From Phyllobates terribilis (lineage: Eukaryota), in assembly GCF_046119375.1 (NCBI RefSeq), contig NW_027362773.1, forward strand, positions 208,630,001 through 208,694,000: a DNA stretch of 64,000 nucleotides, read 5' to 3'. Shown here in pieces: positions 34,923-63,300 of the stretch. The notes beneath the pieces are model-generated. The model was not told the DNA's origin. It was given only the letters and a program-made list of their open reading frames with translations, and ran no database searches. Within the stretch, counting starts at the first letter, position 1, and each line of letters begins with the position of its first letter. Position numbers and translations under genes: made by a program.

Positions 34923-37900
34923 ATGTGTGAAGTCCTGGAAGGGGAAGAATTGGATTGGGGGAAAGAGGAGAAAAGTGACAGGTGAGCAGGGGCAACATTG
35001 TCTCTCAGAGGCCAGGAAAGCTGAGTGACAACCAGTATGGCCGCCTCAGCTAGATGTTGACAATTCCTGCCTCTGCTTTGCCCCCTAGAGGTAGTCAATG
35101 GCCTCCTTCACAGTGCCCACTAAAGGTAGTCAATGGCCACCTTCACAGTGCCCCCTAGAGGTAGTCAGTGGTCGCCTTCACGGTGCCCCCTAGAGGTAAT
35201 CAGTGATCGCCTCCACAGTGCCCCCTAGAGGTGGTCAATGTCCAACTCTGCAGTGCCCCCTAGAGTTATATAATGACCGCCTTAACGGTACCCCCTAGAG
35301 GTAGTCAATGGCCACCTTCACGGTGCCCCCTAGAGGTAGTCAATGGCCGCCTTCGCGGTGCCCCCTAGAGGTAGTCAATGGCCGCCTTCGCGGTGCCCCC
35401 TAGAGGTAGTCAATGGCCGCCTTCGCGGTGCCCCCTAGAGGTAGTCAATGGCCGCCTTCGCGGTGCCCCCTAGAGGTAGTCAATGGCCGCCTTCGCGGTG
35501 CCCCCTAGAGGTAGTCAATGGCTGCCTTCGCGGTGCCCCCTAGAGGTAGTCAATGGCCGCCTTCACGGTGCCCCATAGAGGTAGTCAATGGCCGCCTTCA
35601 CGGTGCCCCCTAGAGTTATATAATGGCCGCCTTCACGGTGCCCCCTAGAGGTAGTCAATGGCCGCCTTCATGCTATTCCCTAGAGGTAGTCAATGGTCGC
35701 CTTCACGGTGTTCCCTAGAGGTAGTGAATGCCCGCCTTCACATATTTTCACTCATGCATTAGAAATGAAAATAACAATTGTGCCGGTCCTGACACTTAAT
35801 CGTCACCTGCAGCGCACAGAAGACCCTGCCAACTGTTATGGGGTCCGTTGATCTATGATAAACGCGCCTGCTGTGTGAATTACATTTTTTTTTCTTACTT
35901 TGGGCAGAACCTGCCTCCATCCCAGATGTGACCCGAGTCGGGAGGAGGCACTGCAGCTCCTGGGACATGTTGGGGGAGGGGATAGTTTTCTGGTTTTCAG
36001 GCTGACGTGACTTCTCTTCTATCCTCAGGTCGGGGCAGACATGTATGAAGTGCAAGGAAAGCTCCGCCGTCCTCATCATACGGGTGGGAGACGCCTTCTG
36101 CAAGTAAGTTGTGCACATTGCGGAGTCTCTCCGCCCCCTGGGGCTAAGTCCGGAGGACCGCCTGTTACGTGACGGCATCAATAGCTCCTCTTCTGATTAG
36201 CCGGTCTGGCGCTTATGTCACACTGCAACGATTACATCGCAATGAGTTGACTAATCAAAACAAGAGCTGTGGATTCCGTCACAAAACTTTTATCTGTAAA
36301 GATCGTTCTATTTCTTGTGCATCTGCCATGTTTTTCCGCACGTGGCATTTTCCTTTAGTGGTAGATGTTGCAGTCTGAACTCCCTGAGCGGCTTGTCCTG
36401 AGCTCTTTCCCTCTCTTTTCTCGATGTAGGTCGTGCTTCAAAGAATATTTTGTACACAAATTCCGAGCCATGCTGGGGAAGAACCGAGTCGTGTATCCAG
36501 GAGAGAAGGTAACGGAACCTCTGGGTTCGATAATTACTCAAAGTGCGACCATCATTTTGAAAAAGCTGCTGATCGTAAGGGTGTATGGGGGTCCTGAGTC
36601 AAAACCCTGCTCCTACATACGCTGCACACACAGAGTGGTGCATGGGCTCTATAATAAGTTTGTGGGTCCGTACACTGCTTGGGTCTCTGAACTTGAACCC
36701 CCTCCGATCGGCAGAAATATTGAAGATATGTTAAAATTCCTACAAAGTGATAATTATACTTTAAATGTTTATTTCTAACCTGTAAAGCTACAACTTGTGG
36801 ATCCCTCGGGTTTCCAGCTTTGTGAACCCCCTAAAGATCCCAACGGGGGGGGGGGGGGGTTAAAAATGCCCCACGGGAATGGACCGGTACCTGAGCTCCA
36901 TTCATTCTCTAAGCTGAGCTTTGTGCTCTTACCCTTAGTCCCATAGGCAATGATGGGAGTGTGGTGCTCATGCTCTGCTCCACCAATTCACAAGATTTCC
37001 CCTATACTGTGGGTAGCCTGTTACTGGCCCCGGTGGTCCCGTTCTGTGCATATGACCACTGCAGCCAATCATTGTATCATTAAACGGCGACCGTTCAAAT
37101 GGCTGACCGTCCATGTAATATATAGTAGGATCACAGGATGCCCTCTATAATGTTCGTGCGGCAATATATACACACAGATTATCCCAAAAAGACGTTGGGC
37201 TCTATTCATCATTTGTGGTCCCTTTTTTTTTTTGCCTTGGCGTTTTCGACCCTGAAATTACTTAATGCTTCATGCAGGATACACACAGCAGCCTGCCATG
37301 CAAAGCTGCAGTATAAAGCATGGAGTAGGGTAGAACAATAGTTATTGCTGAGACCAACGGTACCTAAAAGACCAGGCATCTACATTACTGATCCAGCTGT
37401 TCTCCAATGCAGCAGAAGTAAATGGCAGGACTGGCCGTCCTTGCTGCGGGTGATGTGGCTTCAGAGATGCATGATCACACGAGAGGTTTTACAGCACGTG
37501 GGAAATCAAGGATTTCTGTTATGACGTCCATCTGTTTCAGGTTCTCCTGGCTTATTCTGGTGGACCGTCCTCAAGTGCTTTGATCCAGCAGGTCCAGGAG
37601 GTGAGAACACTACATGTTATACCATTATATCTTATTACAAGTAACATTGTATTTAAAGAGATTGTCCAACAATGAAAAATTAAGAAAAAAAAACACAAAC
37701 TTGTGAAGACCCAGGGTCTTCCGTGGGCATAATACCACTCAGACAACGCAGGGTGAGGGTAACACAGTGTGGCAATACTTTATTGAACCACCAAACAGAC
37801 AATAACATACAGAAGAGTCCCAACAAATACCCAAGATGGTGCAAACTACAGTCTCACCCTTCCGCTGACTTGTCGGGATTAAAGCCGCTGCGACTCCAGG

Positions 37901-43900: not shown

Positions 43901-45333
43901 TAATGAACAGTCATTAATAAAAAATAAAAAAAAAATCGTGACACATTCCCTTTAAAAATGTTTCCACTCCGGGGCCAACTATGTCCCTCACCCGCTTTCA
44001 TGGCAATGAGTTTGGTGCCACCTTGTGGTGATAATAGTGTAGTGCACGCTCACAATGCCTTGCATGTGTCTTATAACGATGTGCTTTTCTTCCACCAGGT
44101 GAAGCCTCTGCCTTCTGTGCCACACAGATATCTCAGGATCTCTCCCAAAAGAGGCCAAAAAGCAACGCAGAACCCCCAAGAGACCCCGATAAGCAATGCT
44201 GCACCGGCGGACAGAGCTGTGACAAATCCACCTCTTGTAGCAGGTGAATGCTGCCTGTGCCTGGTGTCATTGGCCACACTGCTGGGTATATATGTATATT
44301 CTTCACTTACAATGTCTTCCCCCTCCAGTGCTCCCAGGACACAAGACTTCACATCCTTCTTATGCTACAGCTGCCGAGTGACGGTCAAGGACGTGGTAGG
44401 TGAAATCTCAGGGCTATTAGCCAAAAAATGTGTTACCAAGTCTGTGACTCTGACTCAGATCCCTATACTTTGTGTCATAAAACCTGGACTTGTGGCTTTA
44501 ATATGGACGTGAAAATGAGCCTGTATCATGGCCGACTGATTGGATGCAGCTCACTCCATAGGCAAAGTAATGTCCCAGCCATAAACCTCATATATAATAT
44601 AAAACCATTGGCTTTAATCCTTTATTGCATGCACTATTTAGTTATATTGTGACATATTTCTTCTTTCTTCCTCATGTACCAGACATCAGTAAGCGCCTTC
44701 CCTCCATACATCCTGCAGGAGGCCGAGCACAGGAGCCGCAGGTAATCTGCTTATTATCCAGAGCTATGACATTAAAGCCCCATTCACACAGCAGTTTTTG
44801 GGTGTACAAGTGTTCTTCACAGATTGTACTTGTACCCATGACAGTCTATGGGATTGTTCAAAAGTCAGATGGCAAAAAAAAAAAAAAAATCAGAGTGGCC
44901 TGTGCAAAACTGCGGAGATAGGTCCTATATTGATCTGGGTGTTGGCTCAAAGTTGGCAATGCAAGTCTATGGATCATTGAAAAAAATCAGATGCCACCCT
45001 TGTGCTGGACAGTTCGATAGAAGGTTGAGAAACTTTAATGTTCACATACGAGAAAAACTGATGAAATTGTAAAGTGCTGTGGAATAATATAGCGCTATAT
45101 AAGTTATGAAAATCAGACGAAACTGACGTCCGCATGAAGCCAAATAAAATGAGTAGGATCTTTCCGCTTCCACAGGTGGAATGCCCCCTAAAGAGCTCAT
45201 ACAATAACACATTTGATGGGATATATATAGTTATATATCTGTATATTTCTCTCGTCTATGCCTGTGGTTTAGGTCAGCGATGAGGAGCGAGATACAGGAA
45301 TTCCTGCTGGATGAAGGATGTGAAGACATATGA
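34923..45333 (+). CDS. CTU2: Cytoplasmic tRNA 2-thiolation protein 2; exons 34923-34981, 36029-36103, 36430-36508, 37541-37600, 39112-39172, 39325-39434, 39909-40189, 40278-40413, 40573-40704, 43065-43156, 43448-43548, 44099-44243, 44329-44395, 44683-44741, 45273-45333
   Basis: CMKCKE...GDAFC; HKFRAMLGKNR; LLAYSGGPSS; ESCTRLA...LGRGAF; VRPMRE; EFPSTVSTVYRTSEKL; LCYSCRV. Junction phases are consistent; AATAAA at 45441. Confidence 0.97.
35079..35741. repeat. 35-bp tandem array, 19 copies, CTU2 intron 1; unit carries a CTCF-like motif
   Basis: Unit GGTGCCCCCTAGAGGTAGTCAATGGCCGCCTTCGC; the minus strand reads CCTCTAGGGGGCAC. Confidence 0.95.
37702..38335 (-). mobile_element. Possible solo or orphan LTR containing an approximately 50-bp tandem repeat (about 4 copies, 38010-38200)
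   Basis: Minus strand TGTGACAG...AATAAA...GTCTTCACA (TG...CA). No TSD found. Confidence 0.45.
40731..42965 (+). repeat. G-rich VNTR (about 50 units of roughly 38-50 bp with a variable poly-G tract), CTU2 intron 9
   Basis: GGCTCAGG(G/C)TGTCGTG(T/C)GGCCTCTCCTGGAC(G)n units. Confidence 0.97.
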
Positions 45334-46059
45334 GCGGATCGGGCCCGGACGGTGTCCAGGAGGCCGCACAGGCCGGCACCACACTTGTATTTTTAAATAG
45401 ATGCTAATTTATATGTAAACTTTGATCTTTTATCATATAAAATAAAGTTTTATAGAAAAATTTATAGCGCAGAGAGAGATGGAGAAGCCTCCTTTATCAA
45501 GGGGAAAACAGTCCTTCTGGGTCACAGCAAGTGGTTGGTGGAAGAGCAGATTTTTTTTTTATTAAAATAATGAGAATGTTGTGTTTTAAACCATAAAGAA
45601 ATCTCATAATATATAGTAATAAAAACAATGCGCTCATTGCAGGTGCAAAAGTGGCTTAAGCTGAGTCATGAGACATAACTTACACTTTTAAGGCATTTTA
45701 AAGATTTATGCTGATGAAATGTATGAGATTTGGCAACTTTTTTTTAATATACGTTAATGTTTCACCAAAGTAGTAAGTTGTCTCCCATCCATATAATAGA
45801 GGATAACTTGCTGATCACTAGGACCTGCAGTGATCTCGAGATCCAGGTTACCAGACTCGAATACACATGCTCGAACGCCGCTCTGTTCGTGGTCCATGGT
45901 CCGGCTACTAATAGCAGAGTGCTGTACTCTGTCAGTCCCGTAGACTATGAATAGAACGTCAATCAAGCAAGTCCCAGAGACCAGTCCTCGAGATTCCTGG
46001 GGCACCCCCAGTGATCAGCAAGTTTTCACCTATTTAGGGGATAGTGTTTCATTTTTGGA

Positions 46060-46475
46060 ACTTGTAGAATTGCTGCTTCCAATAGGTGGCGCTATAGAGT
46101 TCAAGTTCCTCTTTATCTCTGAAGAGGCAATTAGCATATTAAATTTCCCAGAAAAGCATTGCATGGCGAATAAGCTTCCTTACCTTGGCATGCCAGAGCC
46201 GGTGTGTCACTCTCCACAAGGAGAAACCTTACCCCTTAGACCTCAGTCCAGAGCCTCTTATCTAGCCAAATCAGTTCTCATACTTTGCACTGATGAGGGC
46301 CAACAGCCCGAAACACAGTGTCTGCAAACAGATTCTGATTTAGCTATTATCTTAAGTCATACTGCAAGGCTCATTAAAGGGTTGATTGTGACTTGTAGGA
46401 TTGCTGCTTCCAATAGGTGGCGCTATAGAGTTCAAGTCCTCTTTGTCTCTGAAGAGGCAATTTGCATATTAATTT
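46060..46475 (+). mobile_element. Retrozyme-like repeat (331-nt period, about 1.25 units)
   Basis: ACTTGTAG..TTGCTGCTTCCAATAGGTGGCGCTATAGAGTTCAAG...TCTCTGAAGAGGCAATT occurs at 46060 and 46391, with a hammerhead between the copies. Confidence 0.75.
46284..46328 (+). ncRNA. Minimal type I hammerhead ribozyme
   Basis: TTTGCA-CTGATGA-GGGC caaca GCCC-GAAA-CAC A GTG-TC-TGCAAA: complete core, 6-bp stem I, 4-bp stem II, short stem III, GUC cleavage site after 46322. Confidence 0.9.
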
Positions 46476-46910
46476 TGGGAAACAACCGTATAAAATCTAG
46501 TTAAGGGTCCTATATATAAAACTGTCTACATCAGTTAAAAGGGGTATTAACTCTCAACCCAGTATTGCAGGGATATGGGCTTTTGAGGTCTGTATGCAAA
46601 TTTCCGCTTTAACAAAGGGATGTTAAGAAATGATTATTCTTTAACTTTTTTTTTTTTTTCCTCTTCTGTACGACATTGCTCAATCATATAAAGGCTGCAA
46701 CATAGAGGAGAATAAATGCAAGTTTAACTGGTTCATGCCAAGAATTTTTCACCTCCATCATTTAGCGGGAGAGCGGCAATGCTTGTCACATCCATAAAAT
46801 GCTCTGGAGGTTTCTCAGATATCGGGGAATAATGCTGCAGTGTCTGGGGTAGATCCGGAGCGTCTTCTCTCTTGCAATGAAACCTCGGAGAGAAAGAAAA
46901 AAAAGTACTC

Positions 46911-46979: not shown

Positions 46980-47793
46980 AATTACAACTACAGATATGCA
47001 ATGTAAAATAATATTCTGAAAGGCCGTTTTTAATTAATCCATGGGTTGAAAATCTGTAAATTCTCACAAATGAAAGGGGATTCTGTCAGCCCAAACTAAA
47101 CTTCTAAACTAGGGATGTAGCCCCTATACAGATAGATGGTGCTCACAGAGCATGGTGTAGACTCTTGCCGCTCGCACAGCATTGCATGGACTTCCTGCAG
47201 CCATTTTTCAGGCTTGCAATGTGGCAAGAATGTTTGTAGCTACTGACTGCAAGCTGAGATCTTACATGTAATGTGGAATTAAAACAGCGTATTTAAAAAA
47301 GTTACTGAATTTATGTAGTAAAAATGTGTCGTAGTGACGGCAGTAGGGGACCATTTACGGTGACAATTTTTTTCTTCCTTTGTATCAGAAACCTCTCTCC
47401 TATGACTCCAATGCTCAAAGCGTGTGTGGGCTCATTAACCAGCAATACGGCTTCATTGACTCCATGTGCTCTTCATTGCTTTCATGAAAAGGAACGAGCT
47501 GCGTTGTGTAGTGTGATCTTAGCCTTTACATATTACTACCACTAGGTGGCGCTGATCAGATCACCCCTCTAATTCCAATGGGCCAGAGCTTATATGTGGC
47601 AATATTATATCCTCCTATGATAGCACCATCTGGTGGAAGAATGAAGTGCAGATGTTAGTGTGTAGAAACTAGTACTAGAGAAAAGTTAAGACTCTTATTA
47701 GCAAAAATGGTCATGGAAAATAAAACTTGCATGGTGTTAACTTTGGGGCGGATAAAAGTATCTATGTACCAGAAAAAGGCCCAAATAATTTAC

Positions 47794-47824
<31 letters not shown>

Positions 47825-48575
47825 AGTATAGAGCAAGAATTGTAATATGACCTTTCCGTCTGATTGATGGACAGCACAGTGCAGTTTATTTCACAGATGC
47901 CATGTTTAATAGTAAAAAACACAAGTAACTCTGAAAACTTTACTTGATTTTGGATTTGTTCAGAAAGCAGAGAATGAACCGGGCGGCGTCCTGCCGTATT
48001 GCACAGCGGAGGGTCCTCTTTGGTGTACAGTATTGATGTGAGGTACAGGCTGGTCCCCTCCCAGCGTCGGGTAGTGTACAGAGTCGGCAGCCGCACACCC
48101 AGGCGTTCTCCGCACTTAATAAAATAAACTTTTTACAGTATATAAATATCTCTTTATCACAAGTCATTCCAGAACTTTGGTCAGAAGTTCCAAATGATAA
48201 ACATTACATAAAAAAAGTCTTCACCCCCCAGCAAGATCCTCTGTGTACGGCGGCACGGGATCTCCAAACATTAAGCAGCAATATGGGTCTAGTGATGATG
48301 TCTTAGGGCTGGTCGGAGATCTTCATCGGGCAGCGTTTCTGCCCTCTTGTGGCGGCAGTAGGAGACTGCAGCAGTGTTTTGAGGTTCTGGGTTTAGGAAG
48401 AAATGTTGACCTTCTCGCTTGCCTTCCTTGCACTGGACAGGTAGTATCGACGTTCTGCGCTCAGTCACATAAATAGTTTTCCTTCCGGAGAGCACGATGG
48501 CGCTCTTCTTACTTCATGTCACGTTCCTGCAGCATTCACATCTAGTACTCGCCTCGCGGCTCAGCGTCGCCATGC

Positions 48576-51500
48576 TTAGTCCTTCTCTACTGTCCACTTG
48601 ATCATGGTCTCCGGTGATCGGTATAAGAAGATGAGCTTGGCGTACAGCTCTTCTTCCAGCTCCAGCTCTCCGCGCTCCCGCACCACGTAGATGTCCTGAC
48701 AAAGCTTCAGGATCTTATCTACACAAGGCAGCTCCTCAAACATGATGGAGTGCGAGATCTCGCTGAAGAAACCGCGCACAAACTTGCCAATGACCAGGAC
48801 GATCGAAACGTACAGACCCATAATTCTGCCGAAGACAAAATGGTGGATTTGGTGAAAATGTGTACAAACCATAAAAGCTTGTGTGAACGAGGCCTTAGGT
48901 GGCATTGCTCTTACCCATATCCAGCGAGGAAGCCCAGGCTTGGGGGGCTGACCTTGTCGTTAAATATAACCATGGGGAGGATGTTGCAGTCTCGCTTGCA
49001 GTCCTCCAGGTTGATCACCCACCACTCCACGAAGCTGTTGCTTGAGTTGCCCTCGCTTATTCGCTGACGGTTCAGGTGCACGTTCACATTCAGATAACTT
49101 TCCTCCTCATCTGAGAAACAGAGATCGGGATTTATACACAGAGACTCCGATTCATCAAAGCCTTACAGCAGCGCACCCGTCATCCAGGAGCAGCCGGGCA
49201 CCACTGAACGAAGTGTCGGGGACGTGAGTATATTTCCTGTCAACACTTTAAAAAAAAATAATTTGTGGCACATGGACATAAAACTGCATAGAAATTTGGC
49301 GGTAATTCAACCACTTTTCGAAGAAAGCTGCTTTTCTTTGTAGAAAACTACCTTGCAAAAAATGGAGCTCATTGATACACCGTAGGATATTATCAGGGCA
49401 GCCTCCAATCAATTTACCGTATTTTTCAGACCGGTTTAGACAGCAGAAAATAGGAAAAAATGTTTTTTCCTATTAATTAAAACTTCCCTGGAGGTGTAAA
49501 GTGGAGTGAGGTCATTATCGCAAATTTTAATGTATTAGGGTAGAATAGCAAGGTAATAAATCTATTGTTAGTGTCTCTGCAGTGTTATACACACACAGCT
49601 CTGCTACACGGAGATAGATACACACAGCTGTACTACATGCACACAGCTCCGCTACATGCACATATAGACACACACAGCTCTGCTACACGTACATCACATA
49701 GATCAGTGTGACCGGAGGGGAGACAGCAGCTCTCTGATCGGGAAGGACTATATAAAGCTGCCTCCGGACTAGGAGACACACTTTTTAACAAGGTTTTCTT
49801 GTTAAAAAAATGCTTCTTTATAGTCAAAAATACAGTACTTAAAAAAAGGTGATTCCAGCAGGTAAGTGACAAAATAATGACAGCTGCGTGTACAGTGAAT
49901 TCTCTTACCTGGCTGCAGCTGTTTCACAGGATTTGCCTCTGGTCCATTAGGGGCTCGGATGTACTTTGGAAACAAGTGGGGGACACATCTGTGCAGAGAG
50001 GGGTGGGTGAATAATTCAACATTTAGCATTGCCTTTCAATCAGTAGTAAAGGGGCATAAAGCTCTGAGATCTGAGCACTTACACAGGGGTCACTCGGGTG
50101 CCTTCTAAGAGGTCGGCCAGCTGCATCCGCACCTCACTCCCCGTCTCCAGGTCCTTAGTGTGTTTCTCTGATGTGTGTTCCACAGTGCCCCCTTTTGCCA
50201 AATCCCTGGAATAGCAAGAATTTGCAATACATTAATCAGGCTTTTAATTGCCAATTTTTTCATTCATCATCCAGCAGTCCCAATTCATCAAGCCTGGGAT
50301 TGATCACGTTGGTCTTGATGAGGGGACACGCTCAAGTCAGAAGGGCCCGATTCATTAAGAGGTGCATGTGTCTTAGGCAATGTTCACATTGCGGTTTACC
50401 CTATGTTCAATGCCTCTTAGGATTTGCATTCAATCCCGTAAAACAGGATTTGACCGACTATAATGATGCATGGAGTAACTCTGTTGTGCTTAGTTGTCAG
50501 ATGAATTGCACAATAAATTTGCAACTCTTCAATATATTACCAATTTTGATGTATATTCCACTTCGCAGGATGTATATACAGAAAGATATACAATGTGGGT
50601 GTCGTTACTGTACCGGTTCCATGGAAGGTCTCACCTCTGGAAGTCCCATGTAAATCTAAGTGTAATGGCTGACGATCCGTTCTTCAGCTCCTTCCTCATC
50701 TGCTCTCTGCTCGGAGGACTGATCCCCCATATGGAGCCGGAGTTCCCCTCGATTTGTGCGGTCACTATGTCTTCGTAGCTGTACAGCGTGATGAACTGCA
50801 TGGCTGTCTGAAACAAAACAGAAGAAGAAGATGACGACTTGTACATTGCTCCATGGCCTAAAGACCTAGAATATATTCTGTCTGAACCGTGACCGCTCAC
50901 CGGCTGCCGATCAAATTCACTGGTGAGCTTCTCGTATTCCTGGGGAGTGAAGGGCTGGATGGATTGTTGTTGAGCGCTCATCGTGAAGAGCGGCTGGACG
51001 GAGAAGAAAAAAAAAAAAAAATCAAAAAATACATTCACATGTCCTAGGGAACAAGGCAGCGCATGGAAGAGAAAGTTGTGGAAAAATGCACCGTGTGACT
51101 GCTACATCTGTCTCTAGCTAGGACTTGTTCACATGTTGCGTTTTTTTGCAAAGTGAGATTTCTCAAATAGCTTATTTTATTTTTTGCAGATATGAACCAG
51201 AGCGATTTTTCAAATCCGCATAGTGTCAATTTTTGCAGCATTTTTCACTTGAATGATGAAAATATTGTACGCAGTGTTTTTCTTTATCACTTCATTGGGG
51301 GACAATGAGGTTGACACTAGGCAAAAAAAAGAAATAGCTCCTCCTCTGCAGTATACACCCGCCTACAGGCACCAAGCTCACCAGTTTAAGCTTAGTGTCT
51401 GTAGGAGGTAGACCTGGATCCTACTGATCCAACCCTGTTGTGTTTTATTAATGTTTGTTCTTTATTTTTCAGATACAGCTCTTCAGGGTTAACAGGGAAC

Positions 51501-53090: not shown

Positions 53091-56000
53091 CTCCCTCCTC
53101 TGCAGTATTCCTGGTTAGGCACATATGGCCAAACCCAGGGAGCTTTCTGTCCGTCCCACTCACACAGTCACATAGTACTGCAAAGAGCACAGGCGTAGTA
53201 AGTGGCCCGCAGGTCTGACAACGGCTTTCTGCTCGACCTGCAAGCCTCCCACCATGCTGGCACTCTAAGATTCCCCTGCCGCCCAGGACAGGGTAACTCC
53301 CCCTCCTCCGGAGTGGGCTGTTGCTATGTCCCAGTCGGTCTCTGACCTCACCAAGGTATCTCAATCTCTGGTGCAGGTCCTAGAACGCTTGCCCATGCTA
53401 TCCACGGCCACCAGTGCTCTGAACTTTCCAACAGACGATTCGCAGGCACCCCTGCCCCCTCCTCCTAAGGGCAGACCGAGGGCACGTTCTCAGAAACGGA
53501 CTCACACAAGTTCATCCTCCAGCTCTCCAGACTCCAAATTGCTCCCTGCATCTCACACCTCTTCCCCAGAGGTCACTCCGGGATCAGACGCGGCATCAGA
53601 TTCTGACTCTGGATCCGACACGGACCAATACTCTAAGGTCCAGGACATGGTTGACAGCCTTATATCGGCCGTCAATCAGACTCTGCATGTTAAAGAGGAC
53701 GAGAACCCTTCTCAGGACTACTCAGTTTCCTTCAAGAGAATAAAGCGCCCGGCACGCACCTTTTCTAACCATTCAGAATTTGATGGTGTCTTTCAGAAAC
53801 AGTGGGAGCATCCAGAAAATCGCTTCACTGGAAAGAAACAGACTTGCTATACTCCTTTAACCACGACCTCGTCAGCAGATGGACGGAGTCCCCTTCGGTG
53901 GATCCTCCTGTCTCTCGTCTCTCGGCTAAGATGGTACTGTCCCTTCCAGACGGTTCTTCCCTCAAGGACACTACGGATAGACAGGTTGAGGCCTTGGCTA
54001 AGTTAGCCTTCGAGGCTGCTGGCACCTCTTTGTCCTTCCTTCGCCTCAACTTGGGTATCAAAAGCAGTCTCCGCATGGGCCAAACAGCTTAGGCAGGGCA
54101 TCTTTATGGGGGCTTCCCCAGACGATCTGGCTGACCTAGCGGATCAGATCGCCCACGCAGGGAAATATCTGCTCACGGCATCCCTTGACGCCGCTACCTG
54201 TTCAGCCCGCGTCTTCAGCAATATCATCGCTATACGTAGGATTCTTTGGCTGAAGGCTTGGAACGCCGATCCTGCCTCCAAAAAATCACTAACAAATCTC
54301 CCTTTTCAGGGCCCCAGACTATTTGGGTCTAAATTATACCAGATCATCTCTGATGCCACTGGGGGCAAGAGCACTTCCCTTCCCCAGCCGAGACCTAATC
54401 GCCCCTTTCCTAGGAAATGTTCCCTTCAGTTCCGGTCCTTTCGTCGGTTCGCTCAACCAGGACCCTCCTCTCAACAGGACCGTACCCCAGCACAGCAAGA
54501 CAGACGTAAACCTACCTTTAGGCCCACTCCCAACTGGCGCGCAAAAGGTCGCTCTTCCAAGCCCTCTGGATCCTGATCCAACAGATTTTCCTCAGCATGA
54601 CGGGACACTCCCACCTGGGATTTCTCCCAGGGTGGGCGGCAGTCTACTTCTGTTCCGAGACCCTTGGGTATCGGCAATAGAGGATGCCTGGGTCAAGGAG
54701 ATTGTAACCTCAGGCTACAAGATCGAGTTCAACGCCATACCGGGAACACGATTTCTCAGGTCCTGCCACCCGCATCCATCTCTGCTTCCCGGTTTCCTTC
54801 AGGCCATTGCCTCCCTTCTGCGTTCAGGAGTCATAGTTCCAGTCCCCCTTCAGGAAAGGTGTTCAGGTTTCTACTCCAATCTTTTCGTCGTTCCAAAAAA
54901 GGACGGCTCACTACATCCGATCCAAGACCTCAAACAACTAAACAGACAGGTACGCGTACGGCACTTCAGAATGGAGTCCCTCAGGTTGGTAATCGCCTCG
55001 ATGGAGGCTGGGGAATATCTATGTTCAGTGGACATTCAGGATGCATATCTTCATATCCCAATCTGCGCACCACATCAGAAGTTCCTTTGATTTGCCTTCC
55101 AGAACGCACATTACCAGTTCACTTCTCTCCCCTTCGGGCTTGCCTTCGCCCCGAGGGTTTTCACAAAGGTAATGGCGACGGTCATGGCCATTCTACGAGC
55201 CAGGGGGATTGTAATTATCCCCTACCTCGACGACCTAATGATCAAGGGTCCCACGTTCAGGGACTGTCTCCAGTCTCCAGATCACCCTGAACACGCTCTC
55301 TCGGTTAGGCTGGCTGATCAACACAGACAAATCCTCCCTGGTCCCATCTCAGTGCTTAACCTTTCTAGGGATGCAGTTCGACACGACCCATGCCCGGGTC
55401 CTCCCGAGGGAAAAGATAGACTCTCTCCGTCGGGGAATTCACCTTCTCTCCGACCCAAGTCCACGCCGTCTTCGCCGATCCATGAGTGTCTTGGGAAAAA
55501 TGGTGGCAGCTATGGAAGCAGTGCAGTTTGCCCAGTTCCATACCTGGCCTCTTCAACTGGCCCTTCTGTCGGCATGGGACAAGAACCCGTCGTCTCTAGA
55601 TCGACGCATCAGGTTACCTCTTCATGTGAGAAGGTCATTAATATGGTGGACTCGTCCTTCTTCCTTCAGACCCGGGAGGTCATTCCTACCGCTTCGCTAG
55701 CAGGTGGTCACGACTGATGCCAGCCTCATCGGTTGGGGGGCAGTCTTCATCCACAACACGGCTCAGGGCCGTTGGAGTCCCCACGAAGCCACCCTACCGA
55801 TCAATATATTGGAGATAAGGGCAATCTACCTGGTGTTGCATCACTGGCAGGACATTCTTGCAGGGTCCCAGTCCGCGTACAATCGGACAACGCCACGGCG
55901 GTGGCGTACATAAACCGTCAGGTAGGAACGCGCAGCAAGTCCGTCTTGAAAGAGGTGACAAGAGTGCTAGTTTGGGCCGAGAACACTGTTCCGGCAATCT

Positions 56001-59000
56001 CAGCAGTCCACATTCCGGGGGTCGACAATTGGGCGGCCGACTTCCTCAGTCGGCAGGACCTTGCCTCAGGAGAATGGTCTCTCCATCCCGAGGTGTTCCA
56101 TCAGATATGCTCACGATGGGGCACGCCGGATGTCGACCTCATGGGGTCTCGGTTAAACCACAAGGTTCCATCTTTCGTAGCCCAGTCCCGCGATCCTCTT
56201 GCGATCGCTCAAGACGTGCTAGTCATTTCATGGTCTCAGTTCCAGCTGCCCTATCTTTTCCCTCCTCTACCATTGATACCTCGGGTTGTCAAAAAGATCA
56301 AGACAGAAGGAGTAGCGGTAATTCTAGTAGCCCCGGATTGGCCCAGACGCATCTGGTAAGCAGATCTAGTAAACCTGCTCGTCGACTCCCCCTGGAGACT
56401 ACCGGACCGTCCGGACCTCCTCTCCCAGGGGCCTATTCTTCATCAGAGTTCTCGTTCTCTGAATTTAATGGCATGGCTGTTGAGGCCGCAGTGTTGACGA
56501 AGGCGGGTTTTGCAGACAACGTCATCCAGACCCTAATTAGTGCCAGGAAACCCACAACCTCACACATATACCACAGAACCTGGAGAGCCTTTTTTCGTCA
56601 CTGCGAGAATGATCAGCTAGCTCCCATGTCCTTTTCGCTTCCGGTCATTTTGGTTTTTCTTCAGTCTGGCCTGGAAGCGGGACTCTCTCTAAGCACTCTC
56701 AAAGGCCAGGTTTCGGTCTTGTCCATTCTATTCCAACGTAACTTGGCTTTCCGTCCTCAGGTCAATACGTTTCTACAAGGGGTGGCTCACCTGGTGCCGC
56801 CTTATCGCTCCCCGGTGGATCCATGGGACCTTAATATGGTCCTGAGCGTCCTTCAACAGCCCCCATTTGAACCCATTCAGGATATCTCAGCCTCGCTGCT
56901 CTCCTGGAAGGTGGCTTTTCTTGTGGCTGTTACCTCTATTAGGAGGGTTGCAGAGCTCGCAGTCCTCTCTTGTCGGTCGCCTTTTCTGGTCTTCCATCAA
57001 GACAAGGTAGTGCTTAGCCAAGTGCCTTCCTTTTTGCCAAAAGTGGTCTCCTCTTTCCACATCAATGAGGACATTGTTTTGCCTTCCTTCTGCCCGACTC
57101 CAGTGCACCCTCGGAAGAAATCCCTGCACAAACTGGATCTGGTCAGAGCTTTGCATGTGTACCCTTCTAGAACGGCTTCCCTTCGGCGTTCGAACGCAAG
57201 GGTCTTCCTGCTTCCAAGTCAACCATCGCCCGTTGGATACGTTCGACCATTTTGGAAGCATACCGCGTCTCGGACAAATCTCCCCCTCCGGGGGTAAGGG
57301 CTCACTCCACCTGGGCGGTGGCGGCCTCTTGGGCTGTTCGCCATCAGGCTTCAAATTCTCAGATCTGTAAGGCCGCAACATGGTCTTCACTCCACACCTT
57401 TTCAAGGTTTTACAAGGTCCACACAAGGTCCATCGGCTGATGCCAGTCTTGGACGGAAGGTTCTGCAGGCAGCGGTTGCCCGCAGTCAGACCTAGTCTGT
57501 GGCTATCTTTTACTCTCCCACCCTAGGGACTGCTTTTGGACGTCCCATGGTCCTGTGTCCCCAAATGAAGCGATAAAGAAAGAGGGATTTTTGGTACTCA
57601 CCGTAAAATCTTTCTTGGAGCCTTCATTGGGGGACACAGCACCCTCCCTGATTTTGGGCATAGGTACAGTTGGCCCGGTTGGGCATCTAATTTAGTTTTC
57701 ACGGTTGTGCCCCGTTGGGCATTGCATAGTTAATTGTTTTATGTTCCTCCTACTGCTTTAGCCACTAACTGGTGAACTTGGTGCCTGTAGGCGGGTGCAT
57801 ACTGCGGAGGAGGAGATATTTCTTTTTTTGCCTAGTGTCAACCTCCTAGCGACAACAGCATACACCCATGGTCCTGTGTCCCCCAATGAAGGCTCCAAGA
57901 AAGATTTATGGTGAGTACCAAAAATCCCTCTTTTCCTGCCATCAGTGCAGAAAAAAACGCAACATGTGAACATAGCCTTATAGTCCTGTCCCTGAAATGC
58001 CCGTTTTGCATACCTCATATCCTCCCAGTTTGAAGGTCAAAGTCACATCGATCGGATGGTTGACGACTCCAACAACTGAACGCACCAAAGACATAAAGAG
58101 CAGAGGAAACCAAATGATACAGATGAGGAAAACGATGATGAGACCGCCCATGCCGTACTTCACCATCTTCTTTTTCTTCTGTCCTTTAGGCTGCGGGTAT
58201 TTCTGAAGAGGAGACAAATTTTACAATAACTCGAAATCTGTCGCAAAGTTTATTGAACTATTTAGATGTGATCAAAACTTTCTCAAATGGACCGAAAAGG
58301 AAAGAATCAAAGAGAAAAAAACAATTCTATTTGCTTCATTGAGGGTCCATATTGAGGTGTCACTTCCATTTGTCCCTGACTTCTTTATGTATATTATACA
58401 TTAAATTCTCTGAACGCTTGATATATTCCAGTCCGGTAAAGATCAGATATCAGCTGGCGGATTTCTTGTAAAACGGAAAATCATGATTCAGCCGTCACTA
58501 ACAATGAAACAGATTTTCCTCTGCTATAAAGAAGGGTGTGTCTGTAAAAAGAAAAGCCGTTTTCCTAATTTCTTTTCTTCCTCAATCGGCTTTATATGAC
58601 CTCATGAGAAAGAAAAAAATATATTCTTGATCGGATAGAAAGCAGGCGGTCCTGGCGGTCGTTCCAAATTCCTCTAGATACGGTGACATTATTCCATGAG
58701 CCAGCGCCATAAATATTCAGTGATTGTCGGCGGCGGGGGTCACACCTCAGCCTGAGCTCTTACAGGAATTTAGAAAATAATTTCAGCCCTTCTGAGTAAT
58801 GCAATGGATGCCGGCCCAGAATATATATATATTTTTTTCTTAGTGAGGTGTTCAGCTAAAGTAGGGGAAAAACTGATGATAGACTGATCGGTCCATATAT
58901 TACCTGATGAGCTGTGATATAACCGAGGCTGAATTATTAGTCACTGCAGGGCTACTAGGAGCCATGTTTGTTAGACGATCAGTGGGTTTCGGAGGCCGCA

Positions 59001-60392: not shown

Positions 60393-63300
60393 CACCTTCT
60401 ACGTAGAAATGTAGGATCTAGACTGTTAACCCATTGCTGTACTGTGACGTAATACTGCAGCGCTGTACTTGTAATGGTGCCGATGTGTGACTCCTAGTCC
60501 CATTTAATGCAAACCATCCAGAGTTCCCTACATCAAACCAACAAAGGGGCATCCTCCCTTTCTCTACCTCCCTTATGCCAGTGTCCCAGGACCACACTGT
60601 AACGGTGTGTGCCAACAGGAGGTATAACACACAGGGGACCATGCTGTATGTTCACACACTGCATAGATGCTCTTGATTTTCCTGCGCGGATTTGCATGTA
60701 CAGTAACAGCACCAGATTAGCAGACGAGATTTCAACAAATATCATTAACATGTTGCTGAAAATTTCTGAGCAAAAAAAAAAAAAAAAAAGAAAATTGATT
60801 GCATTGCAACGTGCGAAATGCACTAAGAATTGATCCCGACAGTGAATCTGCATCAAATTCTCAACAAAAATCTTCTATGCGAGAATGTGCCAAAGCGATT
60901 TTATACAATGCTAGTGTTAGATTCTCAGTTCAGCCCTTTCATTCCCACCATGGTGTAAATGGGATAATCAGCAAATAATGCAAAGTACACGTAAACCACT
61001 TACAGCCGGATGAAAAAATTCTCAACCTTCATTCCCACCATCTTCATTTTCACGGCCGCCGGCTTCTTTTTCTTCTTTTCTGAATCTTGCGGCTTTTCCT
61101 TTGTTGCATCTAGGACAAAATTGGATAATGTGTCAGAAACCTACATTATTACCAGAAATGATAAAACACATTCGATTTGATAGGATATTATGGAAAAAAA
61201 AAATGTACAGTACAGACCAAAAGTTTGGACACACCTTCTCATTTAAAGATTTTTCTGTATTTTCATGACTATGAAAATTGTACATTCACACTGAAGGCAT
61301 GAAAACTATGAATTAACACATGTGGAATTATATACTTAACAAAAAAGTGTGAAACAACTGAAAATATGTCTTATATTCTAGGTTCTTCAAAGGAGCCACC
61401 TTTTGCTTTGATGACTGCTTTGCACACTCTTGGCATTCTCTTGATGAGCTTCAAGAGGTAGTCACCGGAAATGGTTTTCCAACAATCTTGAAGGAGTTCC
61501 CAGAGATGCTTAGCACTTGTTGGCCCTTTTGCCTTCACTCTGCGGTCCAGCTCACCCCAAACCATCTCTATTGGGTTCAGGTCTGGTGACTGGAGGCCAG
61601 GTCATCTGGCGTAGCACCCCATCACTCTCCTTCTTGGTCAAATAGCCCTTACACAGCCTGGAGGTATGTTTGGGATCATTATCCTGTTGAAAAATAAATG
61701 ATGGTCCAACTAAACGCAAACCGGATGGAATAGCATGCCGCTGCAAGATGCTGTGGTAGCCATGCTGGTTCAGTATGCCTTCAATTTTGAATAAATCCCC
61801 AACAGTGTCACCAGCAAAACCCCCCTACACCATCACACCTCCTCCTCCATGCTTCATGGTGGGAACCAGACATGTAGGGTCCATCCGTTCACCTTTTCTG
61901 CGTCGCACAAAGACACGGTGGTTGGAACCAAAGATCTCAAATTTGGACTCATCAGACCAAAGCACAGATTTCCACTGGTCTAATGTCCATTCCTTGTGTT
62001 CTTTAGCCCAAACAAGTCTCTTCTGCTTGTTGCCTGTCCTTAGCAGAGGTTTCCTAGCAGCTATTTTACCATGAAGGCCTGCTGCACAAAGTCTCCTCTT
62101 AACAGTTGTTGAAGAGATGTGTCTGCTGCTAGAACTCTGTGTGGCATTGACCTGGTCTCTAATCTGAGCTGCTGTTAACCTGCGATTTCTGAGGCTGGTG
62201 ACTCGGATAAACTTATCCTCAGAAGCAGAGGTGACTCTTGGTCTTCCTTTCCTGGGGCGGTCCTCATGTGAGCCAGTTTCTTTGTAGCGCTTGATGGTTT
62301 TTGCAACTGCACTTGGGGACACATTCAACGTTTGCCCAATTTTTCGGACTGACTGACCTTCATTTCTTAAAGTAATGATGGCCACTCGTTTTTCTTTACT
62401 TAGCTGCTTTTTTTCTTGCCATAATACAAATTCTAACAGTCTATTCAGTAGGACTATCAGCTGTGTATCCACCAGACTTCTGCACAACACAACTGATGGT
62501 CCCAACCCCATTTATAAGGCAAGAAATCCCACTTATTAAACCTGACAGGGCACACCTGTGAAGTGAAAACCATTTCCGGTGACTACCTCTTGAAGCTCAT
62601 CAAGAGAATGCAAAGAGTGTGCAAAGCAGTCATCAAAGCAAAAGGTGGCTACTTTGAAGAACCTAGAATATAAGACATATTTTCAGTTGTTTCACACTTT
62701 TTTGTTAAGTATATAATTCCACATGTGTTAATTCATAGTTTTGATGCCTTCAGTGTGAATGTACAATTTTCATAGTCATGAAAATACAGAAAAATCTTTA
62801 AATGAGAAGGTGTGTCCAAACTTTTGGTCTGTACTGTATATCTCTACGTGTCTGACCATGGGAGCAGAAACAGCCATAGAAAGCGTTGTGGTCTGAAGGG
62901 TCTCGGCATCAGAACATAAAATATATACAAACTGGTCCTTCACAAACCCATATGAACCAACGCATTCAGCCCACCCACTGTAACTAGCATAAGACCCTAA
63001 TCTCATTGGCACGAAGAGAGTCACACCTTTGTCCAACTCGCTTGTCTGCGACTCTCTTCTTTTCCGCCGACGCAAAGAGCTGGTGCTTCCCTTGGGATCC
63101 GGCTCTTCAGATATCTGGATTTCTGTCTCACTTTCTTTTTCCTTCTGAGGTTTCTCTACGGATTCCAAATCCTTCCGATCCCATAATCCATAGCTCTGGG
63201 GAAAAAAAAAAGAATGAAATACGGATGGTAAACCTGTATGGATATAGTGAGGAGTAACATTTGTGGCATTTATCAAACACTTGTGACAACCTCCTTACCA

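Follow-up and report, generated by a model that had tools for sequence, protein, structure and literature searches.

A hammerhead ribozyme lying between the 3′ ends of two genes that face each other raises the question of whether it acts on either gene, or whether it is a passing trace of a mobile RNA that has spread through the genome around it. We followed this question in a window of 64,000 nt from Phyllobates terribilis (contig NW_027362773.1, positions 208,630,001 to 208,694,000), to whose numbering unprefixed positions refer. A descriptor search returned a single match in this 64-kb window and none in block shuffles (0/100), namely a type I hammerhead core at 46284-46328 on the plus strand, which is also the CTU2 strand, with a GUC triplet whose C17 falls at 46322 and a cut after 46322. 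The CUGAUGA box starts at 46290 and is followed by a 4-bp helix II and by GAAA from 46310, helix I pairs 46284-89 with 46323-28, and helix III is short and self-complementary; a 6-bp helix I, a 4-bp helix II and a short palindromic helix III are what define a canonical type I hammerhead in the accessible text of PMC4209133. The hammerhead region folds with z=-3.65, and an Rfam scan of the window gave nothing at the gathering threshold. The preliminary description of this DNA, which had placed a GUC hammerhead at just these positions, is therefore borne out by the sole descriptor match; it had also called the ribozyme intact, which holds for the catalytic core and fails for distal helix I, broken by a 2-nt deletion and two substitutions.

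The ribozyme is part of an insertion of ~412 nt, equivalent to 1.25 units of a 332-nt repeat, that contains one ribozyme (Table 1). An earlier reading of the region as a 331-nt direct repeat was right about the spacing of 331 and wrong about a repeat array, since only ~87 nt are duplicated and the hammerhead is single; the CTCF-like sequence that it assigned to each repeat copy is indeed present twice, at 46079 and 46410. The SPH/Staf-like segment at 46145..46163 is named for its resemblance to the SPH consensus. Next to the insertion, a MITE-like small inverted-repeat element with 28-nt arms (45795-46034) stops ~25 nt short of the retrozyme.

Table 1 Features of the retrozyme insertion and of the flanking gene ends
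Feature	Positions	Strand	Remarks
Left target-site-duplication-like sequence	46051..46061	+	imperfect; identical to its right counterpart over 6 nt only
Whole insertion, 5′-truncated non-LTR retrozyme	46060..46471	+	3′ end is the one preferred by the family, unit ~78-80; ends approximate
CTCF-like motif, copy 1	46079..46094	+	1 mismatch to published 14-nt core
Upstream octamer site	46130..46137	+	private T>A, found in 0/152 young and 0/20 old copies
SPH/Staf-like segment, just 3′ of octamer	46145..46163	+	two rare substitutions
PSE-like element	46204..46221	+	top match of U2-promoter matrix; contains 5-bp RNA hairpin
Distal helix I, 5′ arm with UAC bulge	46264..46283	+	agrees with family
Predicted snRNA-type start site	46273	+	inferred from U2 PSE offset -69; 50 nt 5′ of the cut
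Hammerhead core	46284..46328	+	GUC; cut after 46322
Distal helix I, 3′ arm, damaged	46329..46345	+	private 2-nt deletion and two substitutions
Partial second unit (terminal redundancy), without hammerhead	46391..46471	+	
CTCF-like motif, copy 2	46410..46425	+	
Intact octamer	46460..46467	+	main family 3′ end falls right behind
Right target-site-duplication-like sequence	46472..46483	+	
Stop codon and AATAAA (45441), probable CTU2	45331..45446	+	
PIEZO1 stop (48576-78) and probable poly(A) signal AATAAA (47885-90)	47885..48578	-	

The retrozyme sits in a gap of ~2.4 kb, 0.6 kb past the CTU2 signal and 1.4 kb ahead of the PIEZO1 signal, and its core was measured at 849 nt beyond the CTU2 AATAAA, on the CTU2 strand, in agreement with the ~850 nt given earlier. 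The names first given to the two neighbors fared differently: that of PIEZO1 was confirmed in its last exon by a Pfam Piezo_cap match and by top PDB matches to Piezo1, and that of CTU2 is held with moderate confidence, on the basis of a 2-thiocytidine-synthase-like match in the ESM Atlas (0.93) and of motifs, which we take to be those of CTU2 exons, that occur in the candidate gene; searches of the CTU2 candidate against Pfam and PDB gave no match. PIEZO1 also holds a broken DIRS-like retrotransposon (~53270-57300, +), with a reverse transcriptase fragment below the Pfam cut-off for RVT_1 and with RNase H- and tyrosine-recombinase-like frames judged by eye, as well as an intronic Tc1/mariner transposase fragment (61825-62511, -).

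A similarity search of the species' own genome (10.57 Gb) yielded 6,648 candidates, with best identities of 91-93% among the 40 scored. Genome-wide, the 30-nt hammerhead core occurs exactly 1,214 times and the 18-nt CTCF-like motif 4,386 times, compared to none for reversed controls; these exact-match counts are lower bounds in that the core is exact in just 16/33 monomers, and they may be swollen by assembly duplicates (L020-22). The copy count is in line with the earlier assignment of the locus to a retrozyme family. The 33 top-scoring monomers lie on average 3.5% from their consensus, and the family includes thousands of young copies. Older subfamilies exist too, as shown by a motif-anchored sample (the first matches on contig C1 that do not coincide with core matches, two duplicate pairs included) in which all matches (40/40) were family members at 75-98% identity. 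Divergence in these older subfamilies is 3-7% for helix I and 6% for the octamer compared to a unit average of 18%, and helix II of old copies shows a recurrent C-G to G-C swap, a combination that points to selection on the element. The consensus unit of 332 nt is non-coding and fits the retrozyme range of ~170-400 nt; a 186-codon stop-free frame across the unit found no match in Pfam. Copies are both tandem and dispersed, the longest array seen having ~6 units (L031). The canonical hammerhead, the non-coding character of the unit and its thousands of young copies together support, at the level of sequence, the classification of the family as a non-LTR retrozyme, and the locus may be a counterpart of the Xenopus REP4 family.

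Within this family, the window copy appears worn. Of 330 positions, 22 deviate from the young consensus, the highest count among the 33 monomers (a biased comparison, given that these are top matches); reading all 22 differences as decay was ruled out, about half of them being common to other or older copies. The 2-nt deletion in distal helix I is private (0/108 young and 0/14 old copies), and each of the two substitutions there recurs in about 1/110 young copies. The hammerhead-compatible fold reaches -18.1 kcal/mol in the window copy compared to -31.3 kcal/mol in the family, and the predicted circle folds with z=-1.2 compared to z=-3.4 for the 332-nt family circle. The catalytic core carries no private lesion and its helix III is able to form 3 bp, and the copy's own flanking duplication is exact over only 6 nt. 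Cleavage in related systems is described in the accessible parts of three reports: monomer cleavage in newt required a looped helix I extension (PMC6155905), 6% of axolotl Rtz_331 monomer was cleaved in an hour (PMC7229834), and 8/9 Xenopus retrozyme dimers gave no cleavage (Li et al. 2026, 10.64898/2026.07.22.740005). With its single ribozyme, the locus can form neither a cis-dimer nor a unit-length circle, and the single ribozyme together with the damaged distal helix I leads us to expect weak cleavage at best; some monomer activity is conceivable given the 3-bp helix III. Li et al. call a retrozyme active when at least two consecutive units have complete hammerheads, and the locus, a monomer derivative, falls outside that class. 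We consider it likely that the locus is a dispersed solo copy, 5′-truncated and in slow, apparently neutral decay, of a non-LTR retrozyme that is abundant in this frog, and that it landed by chance between the 3′ ends of CTU2 and PIEZO1.

How such copies arrive can be read from the ends of other family members, for which we number the unit from 46060 (unit position 1; the cleavage site is then unit 262). All samples of loci are non-random, consisting of top BLAST matches or of first matches along one contig. Among 24 core-anchored loci (the first 30 core matches on C1 minus six overlapping), the 3′ end falls at unit 77-85 in 21, directly behind the octamer; among the motif-anchored loci, it falls at 78-87 in 24/40 and at 179-191 in 11/40. 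Both fixed 3′ ends stand apart from the cleavage site and lie ~105 nt from each other (unit ~78 and ~185), and in the predicted circle they do not pair with each other. The 5′ ends are scattered, with 14/24 core-anchored copies shorter than one unit. Furthermore, an adjacent inverted 5′ piece, often beginning at the two fixed sites, is found in 19 of 51 loci (the first 60 minus 9 duplicates or overlaps), and a flanking duplication of 9-15 nt in 26/51, compared to 0.4% of 522 mismatched control pairs; the windows compared for duplications overlap the element by a few bases, and microhomology therefore contributes to this figure. Flanks of different loci are unrelated to one another and, judged by eye, AT-rich. 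The accessible text of PMC8557442 counts partial tandems that are truncated and accompanied by an inverted 5′ copy among the hallmarks of Penelope-like elements (PLEs), and the reverse transcriptase of Poseidon is described as initiating internally, at two positions that lie downstream of the hammerhead (PMC11167929, accessible part). For a copy to span the cut site, its template would have to be continuous at that point, that is, a circle or an uncleaved multimer. From this anatomy, we judge it quite probable that the family spreads by Penelope-like target-primed reverse transcription of circular or multimeric RNA.

Newt satellite 2 is cited as carrying an snRNA-type promoter (PMC2220036, as far as its accessible text goes), and a 2020 review states, in the part available, that animal retrozymes seem to be without promoters and without a motif that indicates a partner (PMC7761336). 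We fetched U2 and U2-like genes of this genome (Rfam scores up to 170.9 bits) and built a matrix of the U2 -69 element from the 11/20 loci with a common upstream region, these promoters being near-copies of one another. The top match of the matrix in the unit is at position 144 (window 46204) and is equalled by 14/1000 shuffles; it would set transcription to start on the A at 46273, 50 nt ahead of the cleavage position. In most U2 promoters, a sequence similar to the CTCF-like motif is found at -184 to -191, and the unit has it at -191 (13/15; 8/300 shuffles). Direct 16-nt comparisons of the PSE are not significant for any of the promoters compared (one U2-like promoter, 10/60 shuffles; canonical U2, 60/60; U1, 36/60). 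The family has an exact octamer, which in old copies is less diverged than the unit (6% vs 18%); its position is -143 in the unit vs -240 in U1, and the PSE-like segment also forms an RNA hairpin, so its conservation could be as RNA. These signals lend moderate support to a U2-like snRNA-type promoter in the unit, whose chance we put at about even.

The same searches recorded further snRNA loci. A U2 5′-end motif has 63,877 exact matches, in arrays on G000:C5 (L138-L145) and at dispersed loci (L126-L137); many matches lie in tandem arrays of ~1.3 kb with a common snRNA-like promoter, behind which U2 and U2-like variants diverge after ~30-40 nt, and one U2-like variant is also dispersed without promoter. 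Upstream of a U2-like variant, at L137:900-1480, lies a 128-nt tandem repeat that has an octamer-containing stretch of 22 nt (95%) in common with the retrozyme 3′ end. A U1 snRNA array at G000:C1:534.63-534.74 Mb (L146-L165) has a period of 1,079 nt and an octamer at -240.

The CTCF-like motif of the retrozyme has 1 mismatch to a published 14-nt core, CCNNNAGGGGGCGC, taken from the accessible part of 10.1101/637298. The window holds 16 such one-mismatch cores, 11 of them in one minisatellite, where shuffles lead one to expect ~1. That minisatellite (35079-35741, 35-nt units) bears its 11 sites on the minus strand, and a solitary CTCF-like motif nearer the consensus lies outside the retrozyme at 47539-47554, at a distance of ~330 nt past the probable poly(A) signal of PIEZO1. 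An initial suggestion that the family may spread CTCF sites finds support at the level of the motif only, all sampled matches (40/40) being family members; the motif may instead belong to an snRNA-type distal element.

A model that orders these elements has three steps. Tandem source copies would first be transcribed, probably from the snRNA-type Pol II promoter within the unit (octamer, SPH-like and PSE-like parts, with a start ~50 nt ahead of the cut). As is known for the class, hammerheads would then trim multimers to 332-nt monomers, which would be circularized. Finally, as the insertion anatomy suggests, a Penelope-like reverse transcriptase/endonuclease would nick DNA, initiate at unit ~78 or ~185, pass the ribozyme site, often cover more than one unit, sometimes invert, and leave ~9-15-nt duplications; the upstream promoter would thereby be regained by any copy that exceeds one unit. 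In its fullest form, this would be a self-promoting RNA-circle retroposon that keeps a U2-like promoter upstream of its ribozyme solely by means of an internal PLE-type start of reverse transcription after the octamer and a run of more than one lap, and that has seeded CTCF-bound sites, >4,000 of them, throughout the 10-Gb genome, an extension that we regard as doubtful.

PLEs are abundant in the genome, with 63 GIY-YIG matches scored among 4,370 candidates, and they include a young Neptune-like family (L082-L125, e.g., G000:C3:107920405-107924165) with ~99% identity and an open RT+GIY-YIG reading frame. This family has a minimal hammerhead ~130 nt after the stop, a tail region of ~1.6 kb and two fixed 3′ ends ~110 nt apart, with a reverse-strand CTCF-like 10-mer near the distal one. 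As a partner of the retrozyme it was rejected: a 17-nt match to the retrozyme 3′ end exists, but the Neptune-like copies extend 150-270 nt past that point, and the score of the full alignment falls in the range of shuffles. Homology between the retrozyme and this one Neptune-like family is accordingly not significant, and they have no terminal sequence in common. One retrozyme copy with a 9-nt duplication (L023:1429-2690) lies 18 nt upstream of an internal Neptune-like PLE fragment; a clean chimera of the two was ruled out there, the PLE piece beginning 18 nt downstream.

Two other accounts of the family were weighed against retroposition of its RNA. The unit could be the 3′ end (pseudo-LTR) of an autonomous PLE, truncated before its ORF, an idea to which its PLE-type anatomy lends some appeal, as does the report that 24/57 Xenopus retrozyme families match known TEs and that 21/22 of those matched are PLEs (10.64898/2026.07.22.740005, accessible text). 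However, sequence upstream of the 3′ end repeats the unit and enters no ORF, the RT+GIY-YIG frame of an autonomous PLE was found neither in the unit nor in the fetched loci, comparison of the unit with 20 GIY-YIG loci showed no similarity (0/20), a PLE fragment accompanies just 1/100 loci (L023; some loci overlapping, 1.5-kb flanks) and lies downstream there, and the Neptune-like family examined bears a minimal rather than a canonical hammerhead, all of which makes this origin very unlikely. Still less credible, to the point of being extremely improbable, is a satellite spread at the DNA level by unequal crossover and local amplification: such local tandem amplification is discussed in the available text of Li et al. 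2026 (10.64898/2026.07.22.740005), and arrays of up to ~6 units (L031) and segmental duplicates (L020-22, L166/167, L175/176) do occur, yet fixed 3′ and variable 5′ ends, inversions, duplications and unrelated flanks are not expected from crossover. Penelope-like copying of the RNA remains our preferred account of the family.

Similarly, a function for this particular copy has to be set against its being a chance landing. It had been proposed that the ribozyme cuts CTU2 read-through RNA before PIEZO1 is reached, and co-option of this kind, or as a CTCF insulator ahead of the PIEZO1 3′ end, draws on the sense orientation 849 nt past the CTU2 AATAAA, the intact catalytic core, the two CTCF-like motifs in the copy with a third at 47539, and an uncommon placement (~1-4 sense copies within 1 kb of gene ends would be expected genome-wide, assuming 20,000 genes); cleavage-triggered termination can, moreover, relieve convergent interference in another system (10.1101/2021.07.09.451826, accessible part). 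The proposal does not hold up well against a single ribozyme, private damage in the family-conserved distal helix I and octamer, and CTU2's own upstream AATAAA; chance suffices for the placement without selection, the abundance of one-mismatch CTCF cores in the window (16 vs ~1) devalues the motifs, the 5′-OH product of a hammerhead is described as a poor substrate of Rat1, the torpedo exonuclease (PMC3241649, accessible text), and most Xenopus retrozyme dimers assayed (8/9) failed to cleave (10.64898/2026.07.22.740005, accessible text), so that we hold co-option to be highly improbable. Somewhat less remote, and still unlikely, is a live snRNA-type unit, transcribed by Pol II from about 46273 into a short RNA that undergoes a single cleavage, by itself or by pairing in trans with family RNAs. 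The copy retains the whole upstream promoter region, its PSE-like site scores 13.9 bits vs 12.3 in the family consensus, its self-complementary helix III would allow a dimer of -7.0 kcal/mol, and newt satellite 2 offers the cited precedent of an snRNA promoter (PMC2220036, accessible text); against this stand the rare or private changes in the upstream octamer and SPH-like segment and a U1 comparison that lends no support. As a lone, part-damaged copy of a repeat present thousands of times, the insertion is unlikely to have a role for CTU2 or PIEZO1, and we judge it very likely that the locus is inert.

The locus itself is thus probably ordinary, and the more useful result is the insertion pattern of its family, which hints at how RNA circles get copied into DNA. 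On the question of the machinery that makes DNA copies of animal retrozyme RNA, the family offers sequence-level support: the earlier case for PLEs was built on co-occurrence and pLTR phylogeny, and the internal 3′ ends at fixed places, the inversions and the duplications of the target seen here would be a direct footprint that names two exact start sites of reverse transcription. Should the snRNA-type promoter hold up, what is cited for newt satellite 2 would apply to frogs as well, and the presence of more than one unit per copy would have an explanation. Descriptions of the fixed ends, the target duplications or a frog snRNA-type promoter were not found in a literature search that was thin on subscription journals, older papers and supplements.

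Several known systems resemble parts of this picture. Like the CTCF motifs borne by mammalian retrotransposons, the motif of the frog family is a near-consensus core that a mobile repeat takes to thousands of sites; the frog motif may instead be part of an snRNA-type distal element. The metazoan non-LTR retrozymes (Cervera & de la Pena 2020, PMC7229834; Rtz_331; Li et al. 2026, 10.64898/2026.07.22.740005, which reports retrozymes in 7/7 amphibians sampled) have, in the accessible descriptions, the same non-coding unit of ~330 nt, type I hammerhead, short palindromic helix III and copies numbering in the thousands, present singly and in short tandems, whereas the window copy has one hammerhead and a helix III able to form 3 bp compared to 1-2 bp in axolotl; axolotl Rtz_331 and Xenopus REP4 are likened to the family by description. 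Newt satellite 2 is alike in kind, with a unit of ~330 nt, an extended helix I and, in the accessible literature, a cited snRNA-type Pol II promoter, but the frog copies are mostly dispersed and truncated (14/24 below one unit) instead of forming long arrays. Transcripts of satellite 2 in newt ovary reportedly start ~47 nt from the cut, and the predicted start of the frog unit lies 50 nt before it. PLEs, finally, differ from the frog unit, which lacks an ORF and has a canonical rather than a minimal hammerhead, and agree with it in 5′ truncation, partial tandems, inverted 5′ copies, flanks that are AT-rich by eye, and a pair of fixed 3′ ends that lie past the hammerhead, as in Poseidon PAc (PMC11167929, accessible part) and the local Neptune-like family, the ends being spaced by ~105 nt in the frog unit, 30-40 nt in the PAc tail and ~110 nt in the Neptune-like elements.
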